Shown here: piece after piece, positions 6,515 through 40,497 of the stretch
Numbering within the stretch: the stretch's first letter is position 1
Layout of the letters: every line of letters starts with the position of its first letter
NCBI GenBank assembly: GCA_965178125.1
Contig: OZ237761.1
Location: 248,001-312,000 of the forward strand
Direction of reading: 5' to 3'
DNA: 64,000 bases
Source: Bilabrum cf. latius
Lineage: Eukaryota
The notes under the pieces: generated by a model
The model's database searches: none
Seen by the model: only the letters and a program-made list of their open reading frames with translations
What the model was told of the DNA's origin: nothing
Program-made: the position numbers and the translations under genes

Positions 6515-9337
6515 ACACACACGTACCCCTACTATCCCTGCTGGGCCCTGCGTGAACCTCAGGTCAGGCGTGATGTCTTGCACCCGAAGCACGTACTACC
6601 CGGGGGCAGTGCTCCCCGGAATCCAGATCTGCATGGCAGTGGAGGCCCCATCCTGCCCCGCGAGCCACCGCACTGACTCGACCGCATCGCTGGGCACAGC
6701 CTCGGCACCCGCGCTCGCGATCATCTCCAGCTCCGAGTCCTCCAGCCTCTGCGACAAGTTGCTCCCCAGCAGCTCTCTCTACTGTTCCAGAGCTTCTTCT
6801 CGCGCCGCTTTCGCCTCATCCGACTCATCGCTGGCAGTGGCGCCCTGTCCTGCTCGTTCTGCAGCCTAGGCAGTCGGGCTGGATTCCATGGCAGGCTCAG
6901 ATTCGCCAGCATCGCCTGCTGCGCGACTGGGAGCCGTCTAAGCGACGGCAGCGACACCAGCTTTGGCTTCTTGGTCGTTTGCATCCCCTGCGGCAGCTTG
7001 CTGCGAACCATCCCCTGCATCGGTGCCTCGCCGACGCGCAGATCCCTCACCAGCCAGAAGCATCGAGTCACCCGGCTCATGAGTCATCCCCTCGTTCCAC
7101 GCGCGGCTCTCTGGAACAACGGGGACGCAGGCTATGGGAACGCGCATGGACCGCAACGGGTCCGATTCGGCAGCGATGCTGCCGTCAGCATGCTGAGTTG
7201 CGCTGCAAGCAGCAAGCGCCTGGCCTGTGAAGAGAGGGCCCGCCGGCGCGATACCAGTAGCAGCTGCACTCGTCTCCACCTGTGATTCATTAGCCGACAT
7301 GCCAGACGCTTCTGTTGTTCCCTCAGAGCCAGTGCCTCTGTCATCAGGGGCGTCCACGCACACGAGGTCGATCGCCAGCAGTCGGCCAGACTCGAAGCGG
7401 CAGCCGCGCGCATGGGGTGGCACGGCAAGCACTGCCGGATCCACCGGTGGATCGATGGGCGGATGCTCCTCTTCGGCGCTTGCCCCCTTCTTTCCCCCCT
7501 TCTTGCCTTTCCCCTTGTCTTTCCCCTTGCCCTTGCTACCCTTCTTCCCGCCAGCCGCGGCCTCTGCCTCCTCGTGTGCCCTGGCCTTCGCGGCTGCTTC
7601 CGCCGCGGCTTTGGCCACCTCCTCCCGTCGCCGCATCTCTAGTTCCCTTGCCCTGATCACGTCCTCCTGGCTCCATCCGAGGGCGAGGATCTCCACTATG
7701 GGAAGGGGGCGCCCTGCCCTGGCGCTGATCACCGGCTCGCCCGCTTCGATACCGTGCCGCGCCAGGCTTGCTCGCAGTGCAACTGCCTCTGGATCCGGCT
7801 CCGAGTCGTCAGCAGCGCCCGCTAGGGCAGCTGCTGTGCTCTAGGACGGTGACACTACTCCCGTGGATCTCGCAGCACTGGGCGCCGTTCTGGCAGCTGC
7901 AGACACAGGCAGACCGGCAGTAGAGGTGGGACCTGATCCCAGGATTGCGGCACCGACCCCCAGAGCCGCTAGGGCGGGGTGCAGCGGAACACTCCCGAGA
8001 CCAGGCGTACTATAATCACTCGTCACATCTCCCAACGGTGCACTCGTCACACTATCCCCTGCCTAGGCCTGCGCCTGCTGCTGGGAGGCAAGCCATCGCC
8101 CGTGAGCCCCGGCTGGTGCTTGCAGCAGGGGAATCCCCCATCCATCAGGACCTTGGACTGGCCCTGCTGGCTCTTCGCCCTTCTTGCCCTTGCCCTTGCT
8201 CTTGGGCTTGGGCTTGGGCTTGCTGCCCTTTGCTTTTCCTTTCCCCTTGTCCTTGTCCTTGCCCTTGTCCTTGGCACCCTTCTTGCCGCCCTTGCTGCTG
8301 CCAGCACCGTCCTCCTCATCGTCGTGGTCCGGAGCAGGGAGGATAGCGGCAGGGGGGAGCCAGGGGGCCAGGCGGAGGCACAGCTGCCTGGCAGAGTGCA
8401 GCGCACTGCCGTGCTCGAAGGGCCCGCAGTACCGGTACCCGAGGCACTTGCTTGCACTATCCGTGGCACCAGGGTCGGAGTCCGATGTAATCCGCGGAGT
8501 GATCGTCCTAACCACCGGTAAGGCAGCTTGCGTACCATTGTCAGCGCGATCAGCTGCTTCATCAACAGAGCGAGCAGCATCGGCTGACGGTTCCACATCC
8601 GCCCATCCCGCACCACCGGCTGCATCACCACTAGCTCCAACTGCACTTTTCGTAGAAATCGTGCTGCAATCGAGCGCCCGGTGAATTACTGCGCGCTCGT
8701 CCGCGGCAGGCAGCTCGAGGATGCCACGCTCGCACTGCGCCCGGTCCTGCCGGAAGTCGGCTCGCAGGCATCCCGGCATTCGTGCACCTATTTCGTGCAG
8801 TGGTGCCAGCGACATGTTTACTGGTCCATTCAATTTGCCGTGCTCCCAGTTGCCTTTCGTAACACTACCGTCTGGCTGAGACAGTTCGCCAGCGCCGTGC
8901 CTGCGCCCCTTGCTGAAGCTGCCAATGAACTTGCTGCCGTCGGCGCCAAACTCTTCGCCAGATCCATCCATTCGATTGTCTGCAAACTAGCCCGAGTACT
9001 TTCTTCCTGAAGGAAAGCGAAGTTCCCCGCGGCCGTGCATCTCGCCAAACTAGAACTCCCCTTCGTACGTTCGCCCATCGCCCCATTGTCGTCGTCCAAT
9101 CCCATGCAACTCCCCTGACTCGTCAAATGTCCCTTCAATGAATCCGTCGGACCCGCTACGCCCGAATTCTATCCGCCCTTCCCCGCAGCGAATGCCGCCC
9201 TGAACCTCGCCCTCGAACCTCGCAAACGGTCCACCATCTGCGCCACCAAATTCGCAAGCGCACCATCCACTCTACACACCTCGTCGATCCGTGTTGCCTA
9301 AAAAACCGTTTCGCTTGGTAGAGGCTTCGAATGCCAT
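6476..9337 (-). CDS. MORN1: MORN repeat-containing protein, MORN1-like (~953 aa with TAG=Q)
   Basis: Single frame from ATG 9337 to TGA 6476 with 9 TAGs and no TAA/TGA. MORN repeats: FEGEVQGGIRCGEG, YEGEF*FGEMHGRG, YSG*FADNRMDGSG, FIGSFSKGRRHGAG. C-terminal PG*YVLRVQDIT resembles the MORN1 tail. Confidence 0.8.
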
Positions 9338-9456
9338 CCTTTCTGACTAGCGATGAAAAGGATTCTGCTTCCCGAACGGACACAAGTTGCAATTCCGGGT
9401 CCACTCCTGCCGAGCCGCAATCTCTCTATCGATGGCCATTTTTTGCTCACCACATC

Positions 9457-11900
9457 ATGTCATAGGCACCCAGACGAGTAGTTCTAGTTGTTACAGCCTC
9501 CACGCAGCGATAGGCCGCAGCAGTGGAGCAAGAGCTGCTTGAACGGCAAAGGCTTGGTGTGCTGCGAGCCGATGCATTCTATGTCATCCCGGATCCTAGC
9601 TCGGCTCGTGTAGGGTCTGGAGGAGCCACATTCAATGCTTTACTGACTGCCCATGAGCTGGCCGCTGCCGAGTGAGTCTATACGGAGCGTGTACTTTTGA
9701 TGATGCGTTGCTATACGACTCCTCCAGATGCGCTACCATCGTTACCACTTGCAAGACCCACGCAGCCCATCCCTGCCCCCTCTGGAAGACACGCTGGTCT
9801 TTATGATACACAGCGGGGGCGATTCGCAGCGCCTGCCAGCTTAGAGTGTGTGCGGGAAAGCTTGGTCCGCGCTGCCATCGCTGGAAGCGAGCACGCTCGA
9901 ACTCATGGCTCCCATCGACCTCCTCCTCGAAGCCCTGCTGGACATGTTCGCCTCCGTTTCTACGGGTCTAGTAGCCGCGAGCTCGGACGTTCTCTTGTAT
10001 GCGCCGCCAGACACGCACTTCGCGTGGCCTCAGACCGGCGTGACGGGGCTAGCCGTGCCAGCCGACGCCAAGTTCGGTCCCAACCACGGCGTGTACCTGG
10101 TGCAGCCAGAAGACAGGCCCGTGTCTCCCTCAGGATCGCTGCATTCCGCCTCGTCCATGGGAGATCTGGCGGAGCTCGGGCCTGCGGGGGCAGCTGTCGG
10201 CGCGGGGGCCGAGTCTGCTGCGGGAGTTACCCTGCCTTCGCTGGGCCTGCAGCGCGCGACCAGCGACGGCGATGGTGCACCGCACGCGATTGCAGGCGGC
10301 GACGATGGAACCGGCGGCGGCGCCACGCAGAATTCGTCCCCGTTCGTCCCCGTGGACGGTTTCTTTCAGAAGTGGAGCATTCCCGATCTGAAGGCAGCGG
10401 GTGCCATCAGGCCCGACGGTTAGGTGCTGGTGGACACGGGCGTGGTGTACTTCAGCCGACCAGCCGCCCTGAAATTGCTCTCGCTCTCACGGAGCGATCC
10501 TATCAGCGCGTGCACGTACCTGGCCCTGGACATGCAGGCCAGGCCGCTCAGGATCGAGCTGTACTCTGACGTCATGCAGGCAATGGGGGGCGGGCTGGGC
10601 GCGTCCGAGGAGGAATATCTCAACATTGCAACTGCCGATGCGAACCTCGAGCGGGTGAAGGAAGCGAGGAACGTTCTTTGGAGCCAGCTGCGCGGCCTCA
10701 ATTTCTACGCCGTGGTGGTGGAGGGCGGCAAGTTCACCCACGTGGGTACCACCAAGGAGTACCTGCAGACCCTAACCACGGCCTCGTTGTTCGCGGACCA
10801 CTACGGCCTAAAGCGAAGGGCGGCGTGCTCAGAGGCTGGAATGCCCGTGCAATCCGAAGTTGCGACCGGCCTTGCGGTGGACTCGTCGGGAGCATGCCCC
10901 GGGTAGAGCGACAGCGGTGGGAAGAAGGGGAGCGGATCGGGCGCGGCTGTCGTGGCGGCTGCTGCGGCCGAGGAGGGTGTGACGAGTGTTTCGGTGGAAG
11001 CGTCATGCGTGGTGAATTCTGTGCTGTTCCCCGGGGGCGAGCTGGGGGCGGGCAGCGTGATCGAGCATTCTAGGCTGGGAGGGTCCTGGTCCGTGGGCAG
11101 CGGATCGCTGGTGTCCGCGGTGCGCAGCGTGCACGGCATTGCGGTGCCTGACGGGTTCACGGTGCAGGAGGTGACCATGCGACCTGGAACGCCAGCGCAC
11201 ACCGCCGCGATGGCCTCCAAAGGTCCCGAGGGGGCAGGCACCTGCCGAGCCCGGGTGGTGAGCGTGCTGGGCGTGACGGACACGATCAAGAAAACTAGCG
11301 AGGCGGCGGGGGCGCAGGTGTGCGGAGTCCCGTGGGGCAGTTTCTTCGCGGCGTGCGGAATTGGTGCCGACGGGAAAAACTCCGACGGCTCTGACGTCAC
11401 CGACGGCGCCATGGCGATCTGGCCCTTGGACGTGGATCCCAAGCACCGCACCATCTGGACGGCCCGGCTGTTCCCTGTCGTAGCTGTGACGAGTGAGGTT
11501 CGTGAAGGTTCCTCTGCTCTTGCGACCAAGGAGGACGACGACATGTGCATGTGGATGACCAGACTGCCGAGTCTGGAAGGGGCGCCGGCAGGCGACGTCG
11601 CGTCCATGCGGGAATCGGCCGCCGTGCGCGCCTGGCGCTCGTCACACCGACTCAGTCTCAAGGACCTGCTGCAGCAGGCAGAGGCGGGCGCTGAGTTCCG
11701 CTGGCGCCGCGCAATCCGGGAGATGGTCGACGTGGAGGTTGTGACGTCAGCGGTGCGGACAAAGAGTGACGTCACCATGACCCGCCTGCTCAGGCGACTC
11801 GCCGCAACAGCTGCGAGCAGTGGGCAGGCATCGGCGGCCGGGACCGGAGCCGCCGCGAGCTCCGGCGTGGGTGTGACGAGCGCGGCCGGAGTCGGCTCCG

Positions 11901-11943
<43 letters not shown>

Positions 11944-14038
11944 CATCCCCGATGGATCCGGAGCCGCCCGCGCCCTCCAGCAGCTGGAGGCGATCGCGGC
12001 GGGGGACGCCCCCGACGTGGGGGCACAGGCGCTGGCCATCGCTGCGCAGCTAATGTGGGCGGTGGCCGGCTGGGGCACCCACCAGCACTTTAGCGGCCCC
12101 GCAAGCCACCCGGACTGGGCCGAAGCTCTCAAGCTGCTGCAGGCGGGCGAGCCGGGGCGGTGGGGAACAGGCGACCAGGGAACAAGTGGACAGGGAACAA
12201 GCGAGTTCGAGCGAGCCGCAGATGCGCGGCGCCTTGCGGTTCCGCAGCTGCGGAACCTCCGCGAGTCTTGGAGCGGCACCGCGCATTCCCTCGGGAGGGC
12301 CGCTCGTCACTACGAGCGCGCCTCGCAGCTGGTGACCGCCCAGTCCGTGTACACGGCGCCGCTGAGCCAAGGGGCTGGAAAGGCCGCCGAGGGCGCGGAG
12401 GTGCTGGCGGCGGGCGAGTGGGCCGTGGCCACCGCGCCCGTGCGGGTCGACTTGGCGGGGGGGTGGAGCGACACGCCGCCGATCACGTACGAGGCGCAGC
12501 CGCCGGCGGATGGCGGTGTGACGAGTGGAAGCGTAACGGGTGGGAATACAAAGAGCGGTGCTTCCGACGGGGATGCGGGTGTGACGAGTGCAGAGTTCGG
12601 GGACAGCGCTGCGGAGAGCCAGGTGGACGCCGTGCACGAATAGATCCGTTCAGTTGCCAGGGCCGCGAAGCGCGGGGGCGGGCTCGTGGTCAACGCCGCT
12701 GTAACGCTGGACGGAAGGCAGCCCCTGGGCACCCGGGTTCGAACCTGCGACCGCCCCGTGGTAGTCATCCGGACTCGCTCCTCGCTGGACCCGAACGAGG
12801 CCTCGAAATCGGAGGCGGGTCGGTCAAGGGCGCCCTCGGAGAGCGGTGGCAGCGGAACTTCCGGCGCCGCGCAAGGTGCGGAACCCGTTGTTCCCCGGTA
12901 CGTCGTGAGCGAGGTGACGATCGATTCGCTGGTCGCGCTGGGGGACTACAACCGGCCCTCGGCCCGTGGAGCACTCGTGAAGAGCGCCCTGCTGTGCATG
13001 GGGCTGCTGCGGCTCCCGAGGGACGGCGACGGTGGTGTGACGAGTGATAGGGGTGGTGGTGTGACGAGTGGTGCGGTGCCCAGCCTCGCGGAGCAGCTGG
13101 CCGCCGCGCTGGGCGGGCCCGGGCTCGGGCTCGAGGTGGAGACGTGGTCCGAGGTGCCCCAGGGAAGCGGGCTGGGGACGAGCAGCGTGCTGGCAGGGAC
13201 TGTGCTGGCCGCGCTGGCTGATGCCTGCGGCAGGAAGCCCAGCCTTCGAGACCTATCGCACCAGGTTCTGCACCTGGAGCAGATGCTCACCACGGGTGGC
13301 GGCTGGCAGGACCAGGTGGGCGGGCTTTGGCCCGGTGTTAAGGCCAGCTCGTGCGCGGCGCGGTTGCCAGTGTGCGTGGAGGTTCTTCGTCTCGGGGCGC
13401 TCCCGTCCAAGCGCGGCTCAGGGGCGGGAGGGGCACGTGTGACGAGTGAGGCGACGGGGGAGGGGGCACTGCTTGGCTCTGGGCTGTCGCTGGCGCAAGA
13501 CGACCTGCTGACGTGGCTCGACGGCCGGTTGTTCCTCGTGTACACCGGGATCGCGAGACTGGCGAAGAATCTATTGTAGCGTGTGCTTAGGCAGTGGGCC
13601 CTGCGAGAGAACAACGTGACCAAGACGGTCCAGGGACTCCGCGCGAACGCGCTCGCTCTCGCGGACGCCTTCGCGCAGCGGAACGCCCAGAAGGCCGGCA
13701 GGTGCATCGACGCGTACTGGCAGCAAAAGAAGGCAATGGCGCCGCGGGCGGAACCTGTGCAGGTGCAGGCGATGCTGGAAGTGCTCCGGCCTTTCGTCAC
13801 AGGGGCCACGCTGGCCGGTGCCGGTGGCGGGGGCTTCCTCGTGGGCATCACCAAGCGGGCAGGCATGCAGGCTACGATTCGAGATGCGTTGCTCGGTGAC
13901 GCGAGGACGGCATCGATGCGGTGGTCGGTGCATTCCATTGCGGTGGATCGGAGCGGGCTGTGGGTACGTCGCGTCCCGGATCGGAGCAGCGGGGCAAGTG
14001 CTTCTGGGGGAGCGAGCAGGGGCGAGCACGGGCAGTGA
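9457..14038 (+). CDS. FUK: L-fucokinase / GDP-fucose pyrophosphorylase (FKGP/Fkp-like, ~1495 aa with TAG=Q)
   Basis: join(9457..9671,9766..14038), intron GTGAGT..CGCAG. Motifs VGSGGATFNAL, IHSGGDSQRLPA*SVCGKAW, FTHVGTTKEYL, APVRVDLAGGWSDTPP, PQGSGLGTSS, EQMLTTGGGWQDQVGG, LAKNLL*RVLRQW, GAGGGGF. 7 in-frame TAGs, TGA stop. Confidence 0.93.
11903..11941 (+). repeat. (AGC)n microsatellite encoding poly-Ser inside FUK
   Basis: ~13 AGC units in frame. Confidence 0.9.
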
Positions 14039-14141
14039 CCGCAGGGATTCGTGCTGATCAGGCCAGCAGCATAGCTTGCAATGAATTCAATTATTCTATC
14101 AAGTATACGGGAAAACTATTCATTTGAAGCGATGCGTCATT

Positions 14142-17121: not shown

Positions 17122-18272
17122 TCAAATCGGCATTAGGAACACAAGTGAGCGGAAGTGGTGAGGCCCGGACGACCAGGACGCCTTAGCTTCTGCCAATCCT
17201 ATCCCTATCGTTTTGGAGCAGTGCCATCCGCGCTATTTCTGGGCGTGCGTCAATATCTTCGAAGCTCTGTCACCCGCACTTGATCCTGTTGATGGGCTGC
17301 TTTCCTGTACGTCAGCGGCACTGGCATCAGTAGCTTGCCCAGCCTACTAGAAGTACGCAACGGAGTCCCCCAATGATTGAACAGCCTGGGTGCCCAGCAT
17401 CGAAATACGGACGGCTATCTCCGCTATCTGGACCTCTTTTAGGGCAGCCGCCCTTTGACCAAGGTCAAATTCCTCTGGCAGAGCATCTTGGAGTTTGCCC
17501 AGCACAAACTGCACGTACGCCCGCTGGACCCGCTCGAATGGTGGCGTGGCTTCCGTCGCTCCACAAGCGTCTCCGTATTTTCCCTCGTCGCCTGGCTTAA
17601 ACTTGTACACGTTGCTCAGCACAGTCTGCATCACACCATCGTCCAACAGCACTAGCCAAGGAGCGGCCCGATTGCGCACTCCCGTAAGTGCATCCTGGTG
17701 TGCTTCCTTCAGCGTGGACTTGCCGCCCACCTCCACCTTGGGCATGAATACCTCGGACAGGCCGGCCTCGTTCATCATTCGAATTGCTCCAAATGCTTCC
17801 ATGCTCTTGTGGACCCCTTGCTCCAAAGCAATCGACGATGGAGTTACGCATGCAGGCCCACTTCGGTCGCCCTCCGCCCCGCTGGATGCCTCACCTACCT
17901 ATGCAGATAGAGCCGACAGCTCCTGCCCCCTCTTGGCCTTCAACATCTCCCGGCAAACGTCCTTGGCCTCAACACTGGCGGCATTGCCCACTTCTCCTGC
18001 CCCTTTCCCACCCTCTGTCATGGCCTCGCTACTGCCTTTGCTCTGCTGCCTCCTTGCATGGACTCTGGCACCGACAGACTTTCTCGCTGCAGGGTCCTCG
18101 TCGCCTTGCTCGAACTCGAGAAGACTAACGCACGTATCCAACGCCTGTTTGTTCGCTTTTTCATCTTCATCATCGGATCCACCGAACTCCACGTCGGCAC
18201 AGTTGCCATCCCCAGCACCAGATCCCGTGCCTCCTACACCGCCCGAGCTGCCTGCACTGCAAGGACGCGCCT
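17122..18272 (-). pseudogene. Gene A copy 3, 5'-truncated at minisatellite (frame intact with TAG=Q)
   Basis: Homologous to the 3' ~1.1 kb of gene A; TGA at 17122. Confidence 0.5.
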
Positions 18273-18460
18273 TTCGATATCCACGCTCACTGCCACTGGT
18301 ATCTCTCGGGTAACCTCCATTCGATATCCACGCTCACTGCCACTGGTATCTCTCGGGTGACCTCCATTCAATATCCACGCTCACTGCCACTGGTATCTCT
18401 CGGGTGACCTCCATTCAATATCCACGCTCGCTGCCACTGGTATATCTCGGGTGACCACTG
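18273..18460 (-). repeat. 47-bp minisatellite, 4 copies (inverted)
   Basis: Copies at 18273, 18320, 18367, 18414. Confidence 0.95.
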
Positions 18461-18488
18461 ACATCGCGAGGCTTGGCAGAGTCCTGCC

Positions 18489-19841
18489 TCACTCCATCTC
18501 TTGCCTTACCTGCTCCAGCACTGACACGCACCCTGCATGCCCCCCAGCACGCGCTGCTTCCAACGCGTTCATCTACACACCATCCACATCGCCACGCACC
18601 CATGCACCCCCAGCCAGCCGGCCCAGTCGCAATCGCTTCGACAGCTCCATGGGACGGCCCTCCTTCGCCGCCCGAAACACTAGGCCCCGGTCCCGCCATG
18701 CCTCCCCCGCATGTCGCCACCGCACAAGCTGGTCCCCCCGACGCGGATCTGCCCACTCTGCACCTTTCAGCATATCCAGCGGCACGTGCTCGAACAGCTT
18801 GCCCAGCACCTCTCGGGCGCTCATGCGGCTCGGCATGCGGGAACTGTAGCCGTCCCCACACGCTTCCATGGCCTTCCATAGGGGACTTGATGTGTCTTTA
18901 TCATATTTTATTCGCACCCACAGCCACGCCACGTGGATCCAGGAGCACCCGCTCTCCGTCGCAGTGCCCTTGCGGTGGAGCGGACCCCCGAATCGGAGCA
19001 GCAGGGCAAAGGCCCCGGGCTGCCTGTTGCGAATGCAGTAATCGGCAGCCGTGCTTATGATATTATGGTAAATGTCATACCATTTCATTTTATCGCTAGG
19101 GAGGGGCTCCCATTCCTGCTCCATCGCACCCAGCCGGAGCAAAAGCTCGAGGCAGCCTAGTGCACCTTCCCTGCAGCTGTGGTACAGTTGAGGCATCAGG
19201 TACTGCAAATGCGGCTAGAAAAGCTAATGAGCGCGACTGTGCTGCAGACTCCACTGCGCAGGAGTAGCCAAACGCTCCTGCTAGCATACACTCCAGAGCT
19301 GCTCACCTCGAACGGTCGGCTGGCATGTTGTCGCATGTGCTCGAACACCACTGGTCGGTCATAGCACACTGGCGTACTTGACACCGAGTAAGTCGTTATC
19401 TGCAGGACTAAAGGTACGCGATAGAACATTTCGCAGCATGAGGATACAATCTGCGACTGGACGCCTGCTGGTCTCAATCGTAGACGAATCGTACATGCTT
19501 GCCGGTGAGCTTCACAGCAACGCGGAACTTGCCGTTGCCTAGAACGTACGGATGTTGCTCGAATATTTGGATTGCCTCGGTGTCGCTGCCTTTCTTCAGG
19601 CATTCCAAAAACCTGGTAGCAATGGTACTCCAAATCCTGCGGCGAAGTGACAAATGCGATTTAAAAAAGAGTTCGCTTCCAATCCATTTTAGATATTTTT
19701 TCTTAAACCAAAGATGCGTACGTCGCACAAGTCCTAGGATCTATTCAGGTCAAGCGAGCGCAGATGCCAAATCGGCCGCCCGAGCTTGCAGTCTCTTTTG
19801 AATTGCAGGTCTTGCAGCAGCAAATCACGGCAACCTCGCAT
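18489..19841 (-). CDS. Gene B copy 4 (ankyrin-like)
   Basis: Near-identical to the other B copies. Confidence 0.55.
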
Positions 19842-20185
19842 GCCAATTGCCCGTTCCAATGCAAAACACACGACTCGGAGGCCCTCCAAAAGGAAGCAAT
19901 TGTGCCCATTCGTGTTCATCGCCTCACACCTACTAGGATGTTCGTCACTGATTGCATAGCTATTCAAGTTGCTGTGCTGTAGCTTGTATTGGAACAGCCT
20001 TGCATGCTTCTGCTGCTGGAGGAGCTGTAGTACTTGCTCGAATTGCAACAGGATATTGGGCTTTGGATGCGCCCAAGTGGAAACGGACGTCCCGAACCTG
20101 CCCGCCGCATTCTTGACGTTCCATTAAAACATCTTGAAGAAAGCCAATATACCACGACGCAGTGACGGCAAGCGCAGACGCAGCT

Positions 20186-21656: not shown

Positions 21657-21684
21657 ACATCGCGAGGCTTGGCAGAGTGCTGAT

Positions 21685-25681: not shown

Positions 25682-25789
25682 CAGCGGTGAATTGGAGGTT
25701 TGCAGATCTCGCAAGCGATCTTTTTTCGTCGCTATAGCAAAAGTGTACGCAAGTGGAAGCTTGAAGTCGCAACGAAGCTGGCCAGCTAC

Positions 25790-26759: not shown

Positions 26760-29182
26760 TCAAGCGCAATTCATCTGGGGCACGCGCAGCGTCGCTGCCC
26801 CGCTGTCGGGCAGCACGCAGTGCACCACCTGCACAGACGCGCCATTCGCCGCCCCGCGCACAGCTCCAGACCCAGGCACCAACACTGCCACGTCCACGGC
26901 CTCCCCCTGCCTGCCGCGCACCACCACCGAAAACCCGTCGCTGCCGGCCTCGAGCGCGCTGAACCGGTTGGGAGACACGGGCACGAACTTGCTCGGCTCG
27001 CCCAGCAGAGCGTGCCCTGATGGCAGCTCGGGGGCGGCGTTCCACAGCTGCGGTGTGGTCTTGTCGTTGGCGGGCAGGTGGATCTCAGAGAACACACGCA
27101 CGCCCGACCAGTCGCTGCCGTGCAAGTAAGCGTAGTACTGGGCGGGCGCTGGCGGTGCACCCGTGTCCCCCGAGTGCCTCTGGCTGAAGCCCTTCAGCAT
27201 GGTTGGCTGCACGGTGAAGGGGGCGTCGATGGAGGCACTCAGCACGCTGTGCCACCGGTAGGGACCCACGTCCGAGAAGGTGCTCCACAGCTCGCCCTGG
27301 GGACCGCCGCTGCCGAACGCGCGCTGCTGGAAGGTGAGGTCGATGGCAGTGGCGGGCTCGCTGGGCTTGAGGATGCGGCCATCGGCGGTGCAAGTGGACA
27401 TGATGTTGGTGCGGTTCTCCACGCCGATCAGGTCAGATGGGCCCACGGGGCCAGTGGACAGCGTGGACACCATCATCTGCAGGGTCGCTGCCGGCTCGCT
27501 GTCTTGATCGTAGACATGGCACTGCTGCTTGGCCGTGGATGAGTACGCGTCATCCTTCCACGGCGCCAGGCCCAGCGAGTGCGACAGAATGGCAGACACA
27601 CCGATGGACCATTGATCGTTGCCAGGGTTATAGTCTTCTGATGCTCTTGTTTGAGTCACCGCCGGGATCTCCACGCTCTGCATCACGTGCCTGGGGTACG
27701 GCATGCAGTACTGGATTCCCTCGATGCCTGCTGCGTCGGCTCCGGCGCCCATCTGCAGGAGCCACTGCCGGCCCAAGGTGGCAGAGGTGAGCGTGGCGTT
27801 GATGTTCTCGAACTCGTTGTGCAGCCAGTCTTGCTCGTACACCGCCATGCCCCAGTCGCTCGCGTTCCGGAACAGATCCACCCAAAACCTCTCCTCGGTT
27901 GGGATGGCCAAATCTTCGACAATAAAGTCGTATTGCCCGCCATTCTGCTTCGCGTATACGTTCAGTGGGTCCCAGTACCGGTTGTGCGCCACAAACGGCA
28001 TACCGATCTTTTCATGCAAGGTTTGCAGGCCGTCGGGAAAGAAGAACGGCATGGCTGTCCAATTGGTGACGCCCAGGGTCAGTCCCTTGAAGTACCACCA
28101 CGAGTCGAGCTGCATGGATCGGATCGGGATGTCCTCTTTGACCATGTGGGCGGCCACATCCTCCAGAGTCTCAGAGTAGGACTTGCCGTCCTCCGTGCAG
28201 TAGTAGTAGGTGGCTCCGTTGTCCGTGTAGTAGCTCAGGTAGTCGATGGTGCGGTCCCTGTCGGAGAGCACGCAGATGGGCTCCTTGCCGAAGCGGTGCA
28301 GCAGACCGCGGCCCCACTCCAGCATCGTCTGCGTGACGCCCTGCCCAGCGTGCACGATCGTCTCCAGAGTATAGTCGGCAGGGATACTCGTCACACTGCC
28401 CAGCAGCCCAGCATGCACTGCACCGTTCTTGTACACGTGAGACGCCGCCATGAAGTTGCTCGCTGGGGAAATCACCAGGGCGTTCTGCTCGCTCGTGGAA
28501 TCGAACAGCACCAGAGGTGCGCCGCCGCTGATGCCTCCCGGAATCTCCTCTATCTTGGACGAGTTCAGGCGCCCGGAATACGTGCACTCTCGGGTGGCAT
28601 TGGGGCACGCCATGTTGCCGGCCCAGGTCAAGTACCCGAGGGCCATCCCGTCGTCTCCTGCTGGAGTTTCAAACACAGGATACTCAGTGCCCACTGCATC
28701 ACGGTCATTGGAGCCAATGCTAGATACTCCTTTCGGGAAATGCTGCGATCCAACTGCTTGAGATCCATGAGCAGCACGTAATCAAGAACAAGTGAGGAAA
28801 GGCAATGCAGCTCAAGCATATGACTTACTTGCTCGAAAATAACGGTCTCAATGCCCCCATCAGTGTAGTCTCGTACTGCTGTGCGAACTGGCTCGCCAGT
28901 TGATGCTACCTGCCACTCGAACACTGTCCGCTAAAACGAACCAAATGGGTCGTACCCGGTCGACACTTTCGTCTACAGGAGCTGCAAGCCTCCATTGTGA
29001 TTCGTTTGCATAGTTCCACGCACGAACACCCCTGTAGTATTTGTATACAGCCACCGCTAGTCATTCACACTGAGTGCAACCCCGCCATCGGTACTCAGGG
29101 ACACCTGCAAGCCGGCTCCACTGCCTGCACTGGCCACCGCCGCACTCAGCAAAGTAGAAACGAGTAAAACAATATTGTGCAT
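26760..29182 (-). CDS. Secreted glycoside hydrolase-superfamily (TIM-barrel) protein, ~778 aa
   Basis: complement(join(26760..28742,28829..29182)), intron GTAAGT..CGCAG. Signal peptide MHNIVLLVSTLLSAAVASA. Motifs YYTDNGATYYY, MQLDSWWY, HNRYW, YEQDWL, IQYCM, RASEDY, STGPVGPSD. Three TAGs, all in exon 1. Exact family not assigned. Confidence 0.8.
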
Positions 29183-30836: not shown

Positions 30837-33800
30837 TCATAGAAACTCCGTCTTCTGCAGCACCACCTCTGCCCCGTCCGTGGCCTTGTATCCATGGAAC
30901 AGGGGCAGCACATCGGTGGGGCCCAGGGTGCTGGCACCCTTCCCCTCCTTGCGCTCTTCCTTAAGTTCTTCCTCATTTTCTTCTCCAACCTCTTCCACCT
31001 GGACCATGGTGCTCTTGCCGTTGAAGGTCGCCTTGATTGCATTCAAGTCGCCAATCGACGACTGCACCGCTTGCTCCCACGGCTGGGCCAGCAGGCCTGT
31101 TTCTTGCATAAGGCCCAGCACGGACAGCTCCGTGGTTAATGTGATGACGGTACGGCGCGAGTCCTGCCACTTCTCCGGCAATTTCTCAATGGAGTCGGCG
31201 TGTACAGCCTCCGCCGTGGATGAGCGGTCCAGCACGAATTCGAATCCCACCACTTGAGTACTGCTGCTAGCGCTTGCCACCACCACCAGCGGGTGGGACT
31301 GCAGCCGGGTGCGCTTCTCGTCCTTGCCCTCTCTGGTGGGGCTCTTGTTCGGTAGATACCGCTTCATGAACTTGGACAGCGGCTCCGGATCTACGAGACC
31401 CGTCACTGCCCCGATGAGAGCGGCTGGGCCCGCAGTGCTGATCCCGCCGTCCTTGGTCACGATTAGGTAGGGAGACGTACGGAAGGCCAGCGCCATTGCA
31501 ACGAGGTCACCCACCCTGGCCGAGGGCGTGCCGAGAGCGTGGGAAAGACTCGGCGTGCTCTCGTCGTGCAGGTCATCTTCCTCGTCCTGATCGCCAGAAG
31601 AGGCCAGCCCTAGCTGCAGGGCATAGCTTTTGAGAGCGTGGACGGTCTTGTCGATCGGGTGCCGCAGCTTACCGTGAGTGCTGGAGGCACGTGCACCGCG
31701 AAGAGTTCTTCTTCTCCTGTTGGCTCGCATGCCGGACCGGCCATGCTGCAGCTACAAGAGGACGGAATTCCCATCCTGGGCGCTGGATGGTTGGTCATTG
31801 CTTTCCAGCAATGGCGACACATCGCTCTTCAAAGCTCCTTGGCGTTCACGCGACGTCACTTTGCCCCTGGTGAGACGGCTGTCTTGGCCCGCTCGATTCA
31901 GAGTCTTCGTGTCCAAGCCAGACCCATCTCCGGACAGCCACTCCTCGAGCATGCCATCGTCGAATGCAGCCTGCAGCTCGGTGTCGAGCAGCTTCAGGTC
32001 CATCTCTCCCATGACCACTTGCGCGATGCGAGCCAGCGCTCTAGCGTCAGAATGCCTACCGTCCTTCTTGGCACCTTCAATGAGATCGACGAGGTGCATG
32101 ATGGCGTGCTCCAGGCCAGCGAATGCAGCCCGCTCGGGTCGCATAGTGATATCTGAGGTCTTGACGGAACCATCTTCGACGCTCTGGTCAAGTTGTTGCA
32201 CCGCATGGCCACCGTCTGTAGGGACTCCGATCCAGCGCGGCACGCAGTTGTCCCAGAACGCCGAAGCCACCTCGGTTTGCGTTCGGGCAGCCTCCACTGC
32301 GATGGACCTTGTAGCTGCAGCCAGCCTGCGCGTCAGCTGCTCCTGCTGCTCGAGGGCCAGGGAGGCAAGCTCGAGAGCAACCGCGGGCTTCTCCTTGAAT
32401 TTCTTTGCATGATCGGAGGCAATGCTGACCGCGATTTGGAAGGCAGCCTCTCTCAGCTGATCCAGATCTAGCCCGCCGGCAGGATCGTCGCTGAAGACGG
32501 GCATGCACTGGCTGTCGCCCAGCTTCCAGAGGTCTTCCAGAATCACGTCACGAGCCTCCATGGCAGCGAGCCTCAGTGGCTTTGACATGCCCACGTCACT
32601 CAGCGCGTATACCTCGGAGCGGGCCAGCCCAGTCTGCTCGTCCGCCACGAATGGCGTGGCGCCTTGGAATGCCAAGAACGCCGCCAGCCCTCGATGGAAG
32701 CTGTGCGAGTCGGTTGAAGAGCCTCCGAGCTCGCCGGCCAGCCAGAACTCCTCGTCTAGCACCTGCCGGACAGCGTCACGAAGCGGCGCATCGACATCAA
32801 GATCATCGAACAGCACGGGCCGCACCTTCACCTTATCCTCGCACAGCAGCCCGCTGTAGCCCTGCTCGCACTCGCAGACGGCGCGCAGTTTACCCAGCGA
32901 TGGTGTCGCCTCTGCCACGTCCATGGAAAGACTCACGGCATCGCGGAGTTTGCACTGCCCGTGTCCCGAGCAATACGTGGGCTTGTCGTCAATCGAGGCC
33001 TCACCGCACCAACCCTTGGACAGCCGACTGGCTCCGTTCACCGCCTTCTTCACGTCTGCCTCAGTGGCCCTCGGGACCGAGTAATCCTTGGTGACATGCA
33101 GGAACAGGGCAGGGGCATTCGAATCTGTGCGCGCCTCGACTAGATCGTTGCCTGTCTCCTGGTTAGCCCTGGTCGCCCTGTCAACCATGGAATACGGCGA
33201 GGCAGTCAGTCGCCAGTCCTTCTTCTTGGCAGCATAGGGGCTCTTGAATGCAATTGAATAGACCCGCTCCCCTCCCTTGTTGATGCGCAGGTACTAGTCA
33301 TTTTCGGGGAAGTTCTTGCTGGAAAAGATGCCTGGAGTCAGAGGCGCCCGCGTGCTTTTCACCTCCAGCTTGGAAATGGGGGGCCCGTTGCCATGCAGAG
33401 CGACCAAAGCCTACGAAAAAGCAGCGTAATTCTTCGCGTCGGGTTTCAGCCCCTTGTTTTTGCTGCGAGTGACCGCCCGACTGAACCCGACGGGCGCGAA
33501 CACCTGGTTCTCTCCCTGGATGCGCAGGTAGTAGTCGTCGTTGAGGCAGGTAGCTGTGCTCAGGCCTGCTTTTCGGTCCCCGATAAAGATCTTAGTTCCC
33601 TCCGCCTACACGACTGATACAGCTTGCGCTCGGCTGTATGCCCGCTAGCTGGGGCTGAAGGACTTGACGGGGCCAGAGACAGAGGTGTCCCTCATCTCGG
33701 GCTGGCTCTGGAATAGGTGCAGGTCGCTTCGACCTGCCTACGCGATACCAGCATAGGCGCTCTTTGCCCATGCATCGTGTTGCATGCCAACCAGATCCAT

Positions 33801-36800
33801 GGCTTGAGTCGAAGTCTGCATGTACACCTCCGTGCGTTCCATGCCGTCGAAGACGAGGCCAAGCATGCTGCGCCCAACCGCCGAGTTCTCGAGTTTGAAC
33901 CACTTGAACAGCTTGCGTGAGATCCCCTGAACTCCGTACACGGGCACGTCACCTCCCATAAGGCCTGTCACTGCTGGCCGTAGTCCTTGAATCTGCGCGA
34001 CACTGCCGGTGATGGACCCTTTGCCCAGGTCTCGCAAGGCGACCTCCAGCTCGGTTGATTTTGTCGCGAGCGCCGCACCTTCTCTGCTCTCCTTCTGGAT
34101 CTGTAAAGAACCAAGCGGTGCTATCTTGCTGTTGGACTCCATCTGCTCTTGCAGCTCCATTCGTAGCGTGACTGCCTACTGTTTCAGCTAAATGGAGGAC
34201 TTGACGAGGGCCAGTCCGTACCCTAGCCCTGTGTTCTCGCGACCGCTCCAGGCGTCGGAATCCAGTGCAGCCGCCGTCACGTCCAACCTCGGATCGTTGT
34301 CTCGAAATGCGACTAGGTCCACGACGCGATCGTGTTTCATCTTGTCAGAGCTAGCTAGATCAGTGACTGAGGCCTCGAGCGTGGCTGGGATTGCATTCTA
34401 GGCCGATCCAGGCGCAATCAGCCCAAGGATTCCCTGGTCGCCGAATCTTCGCCGCGGCATAGCAGCGTCCTTGCTGGCTTCCCACCCGGTGTATTCGCTC
34501 GGCCACAGGTGCAGCTTCTTCCGATCGTCCATGTTCGGAGGAGCTGCGTGGCATCGCAGTTGGAACATGGCTGAGTCCAGTTCCTTCAGAGCCATTCCGA
34601 GCGGTCCCGTAGCGATGGGGTTGTCGATCTTCGGATTTGTTGGGTCAAGGAGAAGCGGTGATCCCGCCTAAAGAGGCTAGTTCACGGTATCCTGCTCCAG
34701 GTACCGGATGAGTCCCGCAAGACTGGCACGCTGCGCTTCGTGCATTACGCACTGCTGGTACACAAAGTCGTCCAGCATGCGCCACAGCCGGTAGCCCAGG
34801 GCCTGCGTGAGCTTGTGCTAGACCTTGGCCTTGTACACTACGTCCACGATGGCGCTCACTAAACTGATGATGTTCTGCACCATGTCTTTCAGGCCGACCG
34901 CGATGGCAACCGCGTCTCCAACGATCGGGACGGCAGTCATGGCAGGCCCCAACACCTCCTTGAGCTCTCCTGCGAAGTCTTTGATGGTTGCGACCATCTG
35001 CTCCACTGCTGCGATTCCAGACTGTTCGCCCATCTTCATGATCTGCGAGACGGCCGCCTTGGCTAGTGCACCGGTGCTGATACCAAGTTCTTTCTATATC
35101 TTATCGATGCCAGCTTTGGTGCCTTCCTTGACTGCCTCGCCCACGCCTTCCTTGACTGCCTCGCCCACGGCCTTCGTCGCATCGACGACTGATGCCTTCG
35201 GTCGGGTTGCCACGGCGATCTGACGCTTCACCATCTAAAGGGCACGCGAATTTGAGCTCTTACCATCGTTGTAGGCCCTGTCCTTCTTGTCCCAGGACTG
35301 AAGACGCTCATTCGTGTCCGAAAGGCTGTCAGACTCCAGGAGAGCTTCTGCGGATAGCTGCAACTGTGAGCTCACGACATCGCGGATGACTTGCTCGTCT
35401 TCAAGCGTGATCAGCATGTCGCGCTCTGGATTGCTGCCCTGCGCATCTCTGCTTGCTACACCAGCCGACGAGAGAGCATCTAGCGTGGACTGCAGCTGGG
35501 CTAGCCCAGATGCCGCAGCAGCCGGCTTGCAGTATCTAAGCACGTCAAAGCTCGGGATGGCCCTGCCGCTCTCGAAGAACAGGGGAAGCAGGTTTACGGT
35601 GTCTGGCATCCACTTCCTCAGCCTCTTAGTCTCTTCGAATCTGTCTTCGAACAGGGCCTCCCAAGCGACCGCGAATTGCTTCTGCACCTCCACGTTTCCC
35701 AGGTCAAGCTGTCGCCGGAAGGGGCTGGTAGCGTCTGCTGGCTTGGTCGTCTTTTCGTACTCTTTCGTCGCGAGGTCGCCGCACCAGTCCACGTATGCCT
35801 TCGGTAGCTCCTTGGCTGGGGCACTGAGCACGCCTGCTGCTTGAGCTTCCTTGAGCAAAGATTCGGCGAAGCCGGCACGGCTGAATTTCGCTGATTTGTG
35901 CCAGCTCCCCTCCACCCAGTCCATCGGGGTTGCGAGCGGGTTCGTGGCCTTGTCGATGCTGATGGCAATCTTGTTGACGAATGCGTCTGCCAGGGTGTCC
36001 TTTATCTCGTCTAGCTTGGAAGAAGCTTTGTCGACCGCGCTGCTGAGCCAAGAGCGCTTCGCTCCGTTCCATCCACTGACATCGATGCGATACGTGCGCA
36101 GCTTCTAGTAGGCCTTGCCTGTGTAGAATTCCAGCTCGTGCTTGCTGTCGTCTTCAAAGTAGGACATTCTTTCATGCTCACGGAACTCGCCGTGGCCTGC
36201 GAGCAGCTTGCGGATCTTCTGCGGCGCTTTCAGCTTCTGTAGCAGGGGGTTGGACTCGATGTTTCGAATGGCCAGGGCCGCCTTGGCCGCGTTCATCTGC
36301 TTCTGCATGAAGCCTTGCGGGCGTACGATGAGCCCCTCCTTTTCAAGGGCCGACTTGGTGATGCGACGCCCTCGGGTGTTCTGAAAGAACTGGATCAGGG
36401 AGGCTCTGCCTTCGCCGCGAGCTCCACCGGTGCTCGTGTCGAAGGCCTTGATGAAGGCCACGAGAGCATCTCTGACCGCCTTGGCGCGGTTCTTCTAGTC
36501 CGTCATCTCGTTAGTGGAGCCTTTTCCGGGCATGGGTTTGACGAGCTGCATGTTAGTGTCTTCATCATCGCTTCTTGCGACCTGCTTGGCCACGGATCGA
36601 TCGATGGATGCTTCATCTTCATCACTGATCGAGGACGTCGATTTCTGCGACTTGACGGCCTTCGCCAGTTTCCCGGCTGCCTTGGTAGCCAGCCCAATCA
36701 CAAAGTTCACTGCCTGTTCCGCCTTTTTGCTGAAGCTCGGCTGTTCCGGAGAGACGGTCGCATCGGTGCATAGAGCCGACAAGACTGCTGCTTCGCGATA

Positions 36801-37549
36801 GTACTCGCTTTCACGCGACCATGGCTTGCCAGAGAGATATTTTTCGAGGGACGCGCAAAGACCTTCTAGCTTTTGCTGCGGGAGATAGGCGAAAGGAGCT
36901 GAACTTCAGGAGTTCAACATGATATATTGGCCAATACTACCAGATATGCAACGCACGTGGCAGCTGGTGGCGAGCTACCTCATGTGCGAGTCTGGGGTTT
37001 GTCATCAATATATGGCACCACTCGGTCTTACCGCAACAGGTTTTGAGTAGTGTAGCATATCCTTCATTATCTATCCGAAGCGCCAAAAGCCAATCATGCG
37101 AACAGCAGTCTGCGAAGTGCTCGAACGATGCAGAAGACTGGAGGGACGAACCTGATGATGCGCTCTGGTCTAGAGGGTACCTGATTGAATTCAACCGGTC
37201 TCACGTGTCCGATCTAGATCATGGAGCTAATAACTTGAGTGAGGGCAGTTGCAAGCTTCAGGCTGACGTTGATTCCTGTGATTATCCATTTTGTGGCAGT
37301 CAGGACTGCTGCTGCTATTTCGACGGGCTCTCCCGCCTCACTGTGTACTTGAAGCATTGAAGCGTTCAGAACGGAGTCATGCTAAGGACTAGTGCCAAAT
37401 GGAGGCGCCTCTGTGGCAATTAAATCTCCAGAGTACGTGGGACCGGTCTTCACTGCCCAGTCCAACCTCGGACGATTGTCGATCGTTGAGAGCCCACTGG
37501 TCATGCAGACAAGTGCCGCCAAAATTGCGGCAGAAGCAAGGGTTTGCAT
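30837..37549 (-). CDS. Large secreted protein (~2150 aa with TAG=Q) with one EGF-like domain
   Basis: Eight ORF pieces in one frame from 36875 to TGA 30837 (16 TAGs, no TAA/TGA). Proposed upstream exons 37205-37549 and 37032-37109 with phase-0 GT-AG introns. Signal peptide MQTLASAAILAALVCMTSG. EGF-like CSGHGQC...CECEQGYSGLLCE. Confidence 0.75.
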
Positions 37550-37818: not shown

Positions 37819-40497
37819 TCAACCGCTCTGGAGCAATATCGCCGCGGGAGCCAGAGGAGGCAAATGGACCGCTGCCCAGGCCTGCCCGGTGCTCGAGGTG
37901 CTCGGGAAACACCGCGCACCACCCGCCGCGAAGGGGCCGGGGCTAGAAACGCACGGCCGCTGGCTCATCTGATCGATGGACCCCGCAGCGGGCCATGGAC
38001 CCGTCGAGCCCAGCCACAGGCGGACGACGACAGGCTTCGCACGAAGGTTCGACATCAATGCCACGGTGCTTCCATCCGGCAGCACGGATGACCCGCAGTA
38101 CACCCCGTACGCAGGGCTCGGAACCACCTCACTTGTCACACTGCGATCACTCGTCACACCTTGCAGCACCTCCTCGCAGATGAGGGCGGTGCCGAGCCCC
38201 TTCCCCTCCGCGGACGCGGCCGCCGCTCCGAGCTCAACGGATACATTGGTGCCAGGCTCGGCCATGGCCCTGGCGCCGCCCTGCATGTCAAACTGCCAGT
38301 ACGACACCTGCTGGTTCACCTGCAGCCATCGTAGCTCCGAGTCCGTGCGAGGCGACCCGCGCGCGGTGTACCGCAGCAGAGCAGCCGAGGGCTCCAGCGG
38401 GCTGGAAGCGTTGCCGAGGCACAGGAGACGGTGGGAGGGGCTGCTCTGTACCCACGACTGCAGCGCGGCGAACGCCCTGTCGCCGATGTGGGAGGTACCC
38501 GGGATCACGAGGAGCTGCGTATCACTCGTCACACCCGATGTGCTGTTGACTTCCAGATCGGACTCTGGGATCCACCCCATTGGCCACCCTCTCAGCCCGA
38601 AAAAGATCGACTCCACGGCCATCGCGGTTCGGGAGGTGGACAAAGGGTCTGCGATGAAGCTCGACTCCGAGTACAGGACACGGACTGGCCGGGTCACGCG
38701 CATGGGGTGGCCAAACACGCGCGTGCCCATGGCGGACAGCTCGATTCCCGTCCTCTCGATCGCGTCCAGGGCCCCGGGAAGCGTGGTGATGGACCACGGG
38801 AAGGCACCCGGCGCGGCCACCTGGCTTGGGGGACTCACAGTCTTCCCGCACACGTCGGGGTGCATTGCATTGCGGGCCCAGTACCACGTCTCCGCCCCCG
38901 CCAGCCCCTGCATGGCCAGGAACCAGAGCACCCCCCTCGTGTAAGCCGGCGTGATTTCTCCTCCGGAGCCCCTGTACCTGACCGTGGTGATCCCGTGCCA
39001 CTCGGTGTCCAGCACGGGCTTCGCGGGCGACAGGCTCTTGCTCAGGGTGTAGCCCATTGCGGTGCTGGCCCAGTCGGCGGCCCAGTAGCTCGCGTTCCAG
39101 GCCCACTGCTCCCTGGGCAGGATCAGCCGGGAGCTCGCATCATCCGCGGGTAGTATCCTAGAGTCCATCGCAGACACGTCCATGAGCCGAGTGAGCGCCA
39201 CTCGGTCGATGCCGTCGGCCAGCGGGGCGGCGAACGCGAGCTGATTCTGCAGCTTTAGCATGCACGCGGGTGCAGGGAGCTCTTCTTGGTATGACGAGTG
39301 CACTTGTTCCCTGGATCGAGCCGCGTCATCGGCGGAAATCGCCGCGGTCCGCATGGTCGCAAACCACTTCGTCACCCGCTCGTTGTTGAACCGGGCCCAG
39401 TCCGACCAGCGGGCCGCCACTGCCGGCCTGTTGCTGGGGTCTGTCCCAGGGCCCAGAGCGGGGGGCGGGGTCGGAGGCACCACGGCGGGGATATCTTCGA
39501 AACCGGAATAGCTGGCGTTCCAGGCAGCGTTGAGCGCCTCGATGCTGCCGTCGTACGCATTCGAGAGCCAGCTACGGTACTTGCCGAAGGTGAACGGGGA
39601 GGCGGAGGAGGTGAAGCCTGGCTCGTTGGCAAGGAGGTAAGGGCGGTACATTCTGCTGGCGTTTCGGGCGCCGGCTCTCTCCAGAGGAAGCGTGTGGTTA
39701 AAGGTATACTCCACCCCGAACGCAGCACCGGGGTTGTCGATGTCAAACCCAATAAAGTGCTGCTTCCAACCCGGACCGGTCACGTTGTTGACGCCCAGGT
39801 ATCTGTCTTCGACCCAGCTTGGCAGTGCCTGCGACAGAGCGAAGAACGCCGCCGGGAGGTTCCCCACCATGCCGTGCTCACTCAAAAGCTCGTTGTAGTC
39901 CTCAACGGCATACGGGCTGATATCCGGGCCGTGCGGGAAAAAGCTCTGCGGGGAGGTCCAGAGATCTACCATCACGGTTCTTAGCCCTGCCTCGGTTCCA
40001 TCTGCGCACGACGGGCCCCAGGTGAAGCCTAGCGCCAGGATCGGCGTGCCGTTCGACTGCAGCATGCCTCCTTCCATCACTACGCCCGCATTGGAGCCGT
40101 TGGATGAGGGCACTGGAAGTCTCGATGCAGATCCGTTCAGAACGAGCTTGGCTGATGCAATCGCGTTTTCTAGAGCGGAGAGCACCTCTGCAGTCTCGTT
40201 GACGGGAAGTGAAGCAGCGAGCTGTGCGTCTCTGTCGGGGTCCACATGGTGCGATCCGAACCACGCTGCGTACGCTGCTTGCGATATGTTCTTGTACGTT
40301 GTATCGTGCTCAATAAAATTGCATGCAAGTGTTGCTACTTGATGGCTGGCTGTCTCAAGGCTTGCATCTATTCCTGCGCTTCGCATGGAGTCGATCTAAG
40401 CCTGCAATACCTGCATGTCGGAAGAGACCCTACTCAAGCTGCACCCCAAGCATACTTCTCCACAAAAGAGTATAATTAGTGCGCCAAGTATGTGCAT
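37819..40497 (-). CDS. Secreted beta-galactosidase-like protein (GH42-like, clan GH-A), ~892 aa
   Basis: One TAG (40396) joins signal peptide MHILGALIILFCGEVCLG to the 855-aa ORF. Motifs LANEP (acid/base), YRSWLSNAYDGSIEALNAAW, DWARF, PVLDTEWHG (nucleophile), plus a trimerisation-like region LLVIPG. Confidence 0.75.

Follow-up and report, generated by a model that had tools for sequence, protein, structure and literature searches.

A codon-embedded 12-mer confined to gene bodies in a class of chromosome domains: a putative DNA recognition site in a eukaryotic genome

Introduction

The DNA uptake sequences and uptake signal sequences (DUS/USS) of Neisseria and Pasteurellaceae are thousands of short non-palindromic words that lie in open reading frames (ORFs), in several frames and on both strands; they sit in poorly conserved stretches and raise the peptides that they encode, according to the cited part of PMC2817400. 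In this study, a 12-mer with the same properties, GTGTGACGAGTG (recognition consensus RTGTGAYGAGYG), was investigated in a 64-kb window (the whole stretch of contig OZ237761.1 analyzed, C27:248001-312000) and in the rest of its assembly (48.57 Mb, 111 contigs). The word differed from DUS/USS in four respects. The host is a eukaryote without known uptake; the peptides rose about 20-fold in domains rich in the word, compared with about 2-fold; 97% of the copies were in ORFs and intergenic DNA was avoided (5 of 157 outside); and the copies were confined to a class of chromosomes (0 per 100 kb in C13, 46 in C14). The word is a DNA-level, strand-free signal, gained by substitution and limited to gene bodies in a class of domains. 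Its chromosome bias and gene-body restriction are the main feature, which lay beyond the reach of an earlier note made from the window.

Other described systems share single features with the word, as far as the cited parts of their sources go. In yeast, meiotic break factors receive an intrinsic, selected boost on short chromosomes and in end-adjacent regions, with cis features on small chromosomes and in regions about 100 kb from the ends (10.1101/406892, 10.1101/201889); the abstracts name no sequence word, whereas the present case is a dispersed exact word in codons, known from sequence alone. The mo-2 arrays of the mouse pseudoautosomal region (PAR) act in cis likewise (10.1101/536136), but they are tandem arrays. 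The dosage-compensation motifs of C. elegans (PMC5451215) are short, occur genome-wide, cluster on particular chromosomes and have companion motifs; here about ten chromosomes were involved, with no known sex chromosome or ploidy difference, and the copies were in codons. Cyanobacterial HIP1 (PMC4390886) is a hyper-abundant word in coding DNA whose one-base variants are biased by position, but it is palindromic, genome-wide and tied to a host methyltransferase, whereas GTGTGACGAGTG differs from its reverse complement CACTCGTCACAC. PRDM9 motifs (PMC4230742) have sites away from promoters, and a zinc-finger reader from a minisatellite array, as in PRDM9, is possible for the present word.

The present word differed from PRDM9 motifs in being exact, abundant (2,506 exact copies compared with 2,561 one-mismatch sites in the genome) and common to distant relatives. 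PRDM9 motifs erode and turn over fast. On the features tested, the word was not a member of the DUS, HIP1, PRDM9 or transposon-footprint classes; it resembles an uptake sequence in its protein effect and a chromosome-targeting motif in its distribution. The MRE and POF of Drosophila are further comparisons for chromosome targeting. No prior report of the word, judged by the titles of the papers listed, or of the phenomenon was found in the literature searched, a scope outside which subscription journals and preprint supplements fell.

Abundance, codon choice and reading frames

The genome contained 2,506 exact copies of the word (1,253 per strand), compared with 1 for the reversed control word. 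With up to one mismatch allowed, 5,067 sites were found, compared with 234 for the control. The earlier note had proposed that one codon set was preferred despite synonyms and that the signal acted at the nucleotide level rather than as a peptide motif, and both proposals were borne out. Of the 3,011 synonymous GTGTNACNAGYG sites in the genome, 83% were the exact word, while the same-peptide word GTGTCACCAGCG had only 14 copies. In 66 rich-domain genes, 0.02 copies were expected from codon frequencies and 142 were observed.

Reading frames were taken as the longest stop-to-stop frames. Among 118 exact copies in 564 kb of samples, 70 were read as VTS, 10 as CDE, 15 as HSSH, 11 as LVT and 9 as TRH, so all five stop-free frames were used; 3 copies were outside frames and none was in a stop-bearing frame. 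The antisense copies numbered 35, a share possibly inflated somewhat, as 2 of 23 scanned frames looked like shadow frames. A strict sense strand with a single VTS frame, as claimed from the window, was therefore not a property of the genome. The 142 copies in rich-domain genes showed the same mixture, with 104 sense, 38 antisense and 85 in the VTS frame.

The encoded peptides rose in every open frame. The five peptides, the first of them [GSRC]VTS[VAGED], occurred 96, 22, 16, 12 and 18 times in the 66 rich-domain genes (75,962 aa), and 85, 19, 14, 11 and 13 of these, respectively, were encoded by the word. The counts for the same peptides in 63 poor-domain genes (83,439 aa) were 5, 1, 0, 1 and 3. 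All five were present in one Rieske-domain protein and three in a kinesin, and several frames were in use within one Pfam-confirmed protein. A VTS peptide motif combined with codon-pair bias would suit the commonest frame (85 of 142), but hardly the use of one codon set at 83% of synonymous sites against a codon-use prediction of 0.02, the simultaneous rise of the CDE, HSSH, TRHT and LVT peptides, or the poor chromosomes, which have similar codon use yet are without the word. The probability of this explanation is negligible.

Distribution among chromosomes

The distribution was investigated on 42 contigs of 0.54–2.85 Mb (45.95 Mb), and word density was compared with length for C1–39. Density fell with chromosome length (rho −0.52). 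C1–C3 held 83 exact copies in 6.3 Mb, or 13 per Mb compared with a genome mean of 52. In the fully listed subset HGTGTGACGAGTGT (90 sites), 30 sites were on the 8 smallest chromosomes, which make up 9.8% of the DNA (p 9e-10). These 8 together with C14 and C32, the latter two added post hoc, held 47 of the 90 sites, and no site lay beyond C42. The control word GTGTCACCAGCG had 1 of its 14 copies on this rich set.

Direct samples, partly picked near known hits or gaps, gave 46 copies in 100 kb of C14, 41 in 40 kb of C40, 13 in 40 kb of C42 and 6 in 20 kb of C39. Poor samples gave 0 in 100 kb of C13, 0 in 40 kb of C1, 1 in 40 kb of C26 and 0 in 20 kb of C16. Each of ten 10-kb samples of C35–38 and C41 contained 1–9 copies, and samples near the ends of C13, C26 and C30 contained 0–1. 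The contrast between sampled rich and poor domains was about 50-fold, and the distribution looks two-state rather than graded. On large chromosomes, the word was scarce within 50 kb of the end and in excess at 100–300 kb (202 sites, p 2e-4). The observed/expected ratio of CpG was 0.83–0.91 in rich and 0.77–0.92 in poor regions.

Two other candidates were rejected. A telomere-like repeat does not fit, as the telomere unit here is TTAGGG; CCCTAA arrays were found at 26 of the 42 contig starts, only starts being inspected. A marker of an allopolyploid subgenome was rejected because the FUK, SMC-like, hydrolase and esterase genes each had one strong locus without homeologs; the SET gene had one strong locus and weak paralogs in the genome. 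The motif-poor middle of C14 contained a 20-kb ORF-poor block with 326-bp and 86-bp tandem repeats (C14:430001-450000; L307, L308), which may represent either a centromere or the scar of a fusion. With regard to C14 as an end-to-end fusion, no telomere array or contig-start match was found in the 430–450 kb block. The starts of C2, C16, C17 and C28 (L032, L087, L088, L098) had satellite-like sequence in common, which is probably subtelomeric.

Placement in gene bodies and companion words

In rich domains, ORFs leave 17% of the DNA uncovered, yet 5 copies were located there, compared with 152 in ORFs (p 8e-8). Genes carried 1.1 copies per 10 kb over their first 300 bases, compared with 6–10 beyond 900 bases. 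Four companion words, TGCGCGGCGCCG, GCGGAACC, GGTTGCAACC and GTGCATCGCAC, had 36, 115, 47 and 29 copies in 330 kb of rich DNA and 4, 21, 8 and 2 in 310 kb of poor DNA; they were noticed in the rich domains of C14, C40 and C42. They correlated with the word across 71 windows (rho 0.54–0.66), with no fixed distance between word and companions. TGCGCGGCGCCG (M2) had 864 copies compared with 14 for its control; its T-flanked subset was mildly skewed, with 21 of 93 sites on the 8 smallest chromosomes, 1 on C14 and 5 on C13. GTGCATCGCAC was read as GASH, and rich-domain proteins contained 12.4% Gly compared with 10.2%. G+C content (GC) peaked around copies (0.686 vs 0.625). GC at fourfold degenerate sites (GC4) was 0.677 in motif genes compared with 0.632–0.638, with a window-level rho of 0.33.

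The distribution could also be due to regulation of transcription or chromatin by chromosome class, in which the word and its companions would recruit a complex to gene bodies in a manner like dosage compensation. The chromosome set would then differ in copy number or chromatin state, and the scarcity of introns would place the elements in codons. The preference for ORFs (152 vs 5), the low density at gene starts and the two-state look agree with this, and co-occurring words without fixed spacing resemble clustered recruitment motifs (cited part of PMC5451215). More than 1,000 C2H2 finger candidates could supply readers. This possibility nevertheless has to accommodate about ten rich chromosomes plus blocks of others rather than one sex chromosome, it leaves the link to small size or ends unexplained by itself, and the age of the word contrasts with the apparently fast evolution of the sampled finger arrays. 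It is considered rather unlikely, though the strongest of the alternatives.

Copies in the 64-kb window

Nine exact copies were found in the window, all at the coordinates and strands reported earlier; 0 of 100 dinucleotide shuffles yielded one. Sites with at most one mismatch, the exact copies included, numbered 17 compared with a shuffle mean of 0.32. The copies and their host genes are as follows, with TAG read as Gln in the frames.

6476..9454, minus strand: host gene for a MORN-repeat protein; 992-codon frame with 10 TAG codons
8017..8028, minus strand: 11/12 copy ATGTGACGAGTG, sense in the MORN gene, D-V-T-S
8041..8052, minus strand: exact copy, sense in the MORN gene, S-V-T-S-A
9704..14038, plus strand: host gene for fucose pyrophosphorylase-fucokinase (FUK); 1,444-codon stop-to-stop frame with 5 TAG codons as Gln; single copy in the genome
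10977..10988, plus strand: exact copy, FUK aa 425, G-V-T-S-V
11484..11495, plus strand: 11/12 copy, FUK aa 594; the aligned place in the ortholog P0049 is without a copy
11636..11647, minus strand: 11/12 copy, antisense in FUK, R-S-S-H
11871..11882, plus strand: 11/12 copy, FUK aa 723, inside an insertion relative to P0049
12516..12527, plus strand: exact copy, FUK aa 938, within a short stretch inserted relative to P0049
12579..12590, plus strand: exact copy, FUK aa 959, in ungapped alignment, where P0049 has AAASS
13035..13046, plus strand: exact copy, FUK aa 1111, paired with 13059 at 24 bp
13059..13070, plus strand: exact copy, FUK aa 1119
13437..13448, plus strand: exact copy, FUK aa 1245, R-V-T-S-E
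28385..28396, minus strand: 11/12 copy, sense in a 673-aa ORF (26760-28781)
37819..40620, minus strand: host gene with a 933-codon frame and no Pfam match at E<=0.001
38130..38141, minus strand: 11/12 copy GTGTGACAAGTG, sense, 18 bp from 38148
38148..38159, minus strand: exact copy, sense in ORF 37819-40620
38523..38534, minus strand: exact copy, sense in ORF 37819-40620
39289..39300, plus strand: 11/12 match, antisense in ORF 37819-40620, H-S-S-Y, with a core position altered; it may be due to chance
58414..58425, minus strand: 11/12 copy GTGTGATGAGTG, sense, G-V-M-S-G; GTGTGATGAGTG is the commonest inner variant

The earlier note had listed five 11/12 matches. All five exist, one at 11484 rather than 11485, and three had been missed: 11636 (minus), 39289 (plus) and 58414 (minus). 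Its statement that copies are always sense and read as V-T-S was right for the nine exact copies of the window and wrong for these three, two being antisense (11636, 39289) and one VMS (58414). Of its gene names, FUK and MORN agreed with Pfam; "GH42-like", given to the 933-codon frame, had no support from Pfam at E<=0.001. Its placing of most copies in low-complexity insertions stood in part: the FUK copies sit in variable loops or insertions relative to P0049. No Rfam match was found within the window.

Position tolerance and origin of the copies

Beside 179 exact copies, 78 one-mismatch variants were examined. Positions 1, 2, 7 and 11 varied 23, 12, 14 and 12 times; positions 3–6, 8, 9 and 12 varied 1–3 times each and position 10 five times. 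Since the synonymous positions 5 and 8 were nearly fixed (1 and 3 changes) while the non-synonymous position 7 tolerated a Thr-to-Met change (14), we infer the pattern of a site read by a protein. GTGTGACGAGTG is very probably a site in double-stranded DNA that a conserved, sequence-specific protein recognizes. G was preferred at −1, and flanks shared nothing beyond one base. No periodicity of spacing at 10–11 or 147–200 bp was found among 193 pair distances. Neighbors closer than 30 bp (7 of 112 distances) are consistent with slippage.

The origin of copies was examined by comparing 235 of them with all the DNA sampled, in which one had paralogs. The family member on C38 carries the word, and four others differ from it by 1–3 substitutions, ungapped across the word. 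The FUK ortholog P0049 (60% identical) is without copies; one difference is an aligned substitution and the others lie in short insertions. Contigs of run X7 (RNA a guess, as no run was recorded as RNA) span 8017, 8041, 10977, 12516, 12579, 13035 and 13059 ungapped and unchanged, and relatives of about 90% identity are ungapped across 12516/12579 (run X9) and 12579 (run X10).

An insertion footprint, one of the options of the earlier note, is at odds with this gain by substitution. Insertion of a 9- or 12-base unit, as the footprint or terminal repeat of a transposon, would explain a length that is a multiple of 3, GTG at both start and end, and the FUK copies in insertions. The reverse strand of the word starts with CAC, like some terminal repeats. 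The ungapped substitutions in the C38 paralogs and FUK, the ungapped relatives, the position-specific rather than uniform decay and the lack of common flanks make it highly improbable.

An RNA-level signal, such as a site for an RNA-binding protein, a small-RNA target or a splicing or read-through cue, is slightly less improbable, and still very unlikely. The word starts with GT and contains AG, and 104 of 142 copies are sense. However, 38 are antisense, some in Pfam-confirmed proteins, and the excess of sense copies tracks how well the peptides are tolerated in poor genes. The run X7 contigs cross seven copies without a gap and the frames stay open, and the restriction to certain chromosomes would have no explanation.

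The age of the word was examined in metagenomes. Most of 123 metagenome loci were simple repeats of no relation. Eleven loci were assigned to relatives with the TAG=Gln code, because their frames lengthened under this code or the same peptides were present. These loci, selected for holding a pair, contained 35 copies in 39,760 bases in the same frames as the host. Their proteins were 35% (SMC-like) and 76% (SET domain) identical to those of the host genome, and three copies in the relative's SET gene were absent from the host ortholog. Judged from these comparisons, the word appears to be old while individual copies turn over. Two loci were in viral contigs, and both were simple tandem repeats. 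For four genes within or next to motif-bearing stretches of the relatives, the host orthologs were on C17, C20, C25 and C33, none of them in the rich set; n is too small for this comparison of domains (p 0.05 vs 0.55).

Molecular drive without function is also to be weighed here: an allele bearing a site would be passed on in excess during gene conversion or mismatch repair, and proteins would bear the cost. A bound site could block breaks, or methylation-guided repair could build the site, as proposed for HIP1, and copies would accumulate where recombination is frequent. The distortion of peptides in every open frame, as with uptake sequences (cited part of PMC2817400), the rise of several unrelated words together, as from a general bias, and the lack of positional conservation speak for drive. 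Drive should, however, fill unconstrained intergenic DNA first, which the word avoids, and rich regions resemble poor ones in their CpG ratios. The word is not palindromic, and the single C5-methyltransferase match read (1 of 11) adjoins a virophage-type integrase. Drive is therefore judged unlikely, more so than regulation by chromosome class.

Candidate reader and meiotic proteins

The genome contained 1,067 C2H2 finger candidates, of which 150 were scored. Many formed 87-bp arrays in clustered genes; tandem clusters were seen on C3, C4, C5, C13 and C20. Two proteins were read (L315:1474-3387, L316:504-2183). They had 14–15 near-identical fingers with varying contact positions and no SET domain, and an N-terminal VIDLVS stretch, which we take to be a SUMO-interaction motif. 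Such array proteins are possible readers of the word. Among meiosis-related proteins, two Spo11/TopoVI-A, one Mnd1 and three HORMA matches were found.

C5-methyltransferases, the only methyltransferase class searched, had 11 PF00145 matches in the genome. The one read (L317:1133-2212) adjoins a virophage-type integrase gene in DNA that is not host-like, and five near-identical full matches were on C2, C3, C5, C7 and C9. These enzymes are likely carried by virus-like elements.

A meiotic role as the preferred reading

The reading preferred here, at a probability of roughly 0.4, is that the word marks small chromosomes and end-near domains for the meiotic axis or recombination, for crossover assurance. 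New copies very probably originate as one or two point changes where the coding sequence is tolerant, and slippage doubles some of them. A force confined to some chromosome domains very probably fixes them in any stop-free frame that the protein tolerates. In the preferred reading, that force would be selection for recombination of small chromosomes and of domains about 100–300 kb from ends. Once bound, the protein would provide an anchor for the meiotic axis or for pro-break factors; as the anchor would lie in gene bodies and not at promoters, each megabase would gain axis and crossovers. If binding shields the site itself from cutting, the site would not erode, in line with a consensus that is sharp and long-lived. 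The rich blocks of larger chromosomes (C14, part of C12) would descend from small chromosomes. Crossover assurance is favored because small size and end proximity also raise break-factor binding in yeast, because a sequence acting in cis has this effect in the mouse PAR, and because Spo11/TopoVI-A, Mnd1 and HORMA matches are present.

Several results weigh against crossover assurance. C14 (1.22 Mb) is rich, whereas almost no copies occur on C26 (0.93 Mb), C30 (0.86 Mb) and C13, even toward their ends; small size is therefore insufficient. Six tandem gene copies on C10 inflate the peak in distance from the ends, and telomeres were inspected at contig starts only. A GC footprint, as frequent recombination should leave, was weak: the local peak around copies was gone in a paired comparison within 17 genes (GC4 0.714 close to copies, 0.698 far from them, p 0.93). 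GC shifted in the codons for Gln and Phe only, Lys, Glu and Asp codons did not shift, and the DNA outside ORFs was not more GC-rich. No reader protein was identified, the finger-residue prediction for two proteins giving no convincing match, and the Spo11/TopoVI-A, Mnd1 and HORMA matches may not be meiosis-specific paralogs.

Host lineage and neighboring DNA

Long uninterrupted frames appeared once TAG was translated as Gln while TAA and TGA were kept as stops; the host genes were whole only then. TAG codons at aa 240 and 1292 of FUK align with Gln in homologs. The frames of the host were long and intron-free, and its code was common to the metagenome relatives. The closest named CLN3 homologs had the EukProt prefixes GECG and PLAT, at 38–51% identity, which indicates relatives only. 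These prefixes presumably denote bigyran stramenopiles. From these features, the host seems to be an intron-poor, stramenopile-like protist with a TAG=Gln nuclear code. No description of this code in a Bigyra lineage was found in the literature searched, within the scope given above, and the main text of a related bicosoecid genome preprint had no passage with "motif" or "genetic code".

A virophage-like insert was found left of the window, at about 226–247.5 kb of C27 (L042:2911-9442, L041:128-7189), with 31–33% GC. It encodes a major capsid protein (PF22031), a packaging-type ATPase and an rve integrase with a chromodomain; its frames are open under the host TAG=Gln code, and it has 0 copies of the word. 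By its gene content, it is an endogenous mavirus-like virophage. An endogenous virophage adjoining the window fits the stramenopile placement (cited part of PMC8547959).

Three other features of the window had no Pfam match. A gene family with a period of about 3 kb formed two inverted clusters (2-6345 and 17122-26128), its units flanked by 47-bp tandem arrays (3035, 6030, 18273, 21328). Tandem paralogous membrane-like proteins of 1,280–1,490 aa were encoded at 42372-46844 and 47414-51256. A 2,022-codon frame at 30837-36905, with 16 TAG codons, had an EGF-like Cys stretch by eye.

Significance

A eukaryotic DNA word here imprints thousands of peptides (GVTS, CDEC, HSSH, TRHT, LVT) on the proteome. 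It is conceivable, at somewhat less than an even chance, that this lineage has a small vocabulary of exact codon-embedded DNA words that give small chromosomes their own identity, regained upon karyotype change. In that reading, conserved proteins would read the words, which would be written into codons because introns are scarce. The identity would consist of extra meiotic axis and crossovers, or of a chromatin state of its own, and the proteome would be reshaped as by bacterial uptake sequences. The finding touches the questions of how small chromosomes recombine and how regulators pick chromosomes. The cis signal is usually diffuse; here, if the reading is true, it would be an exact 12-mer.

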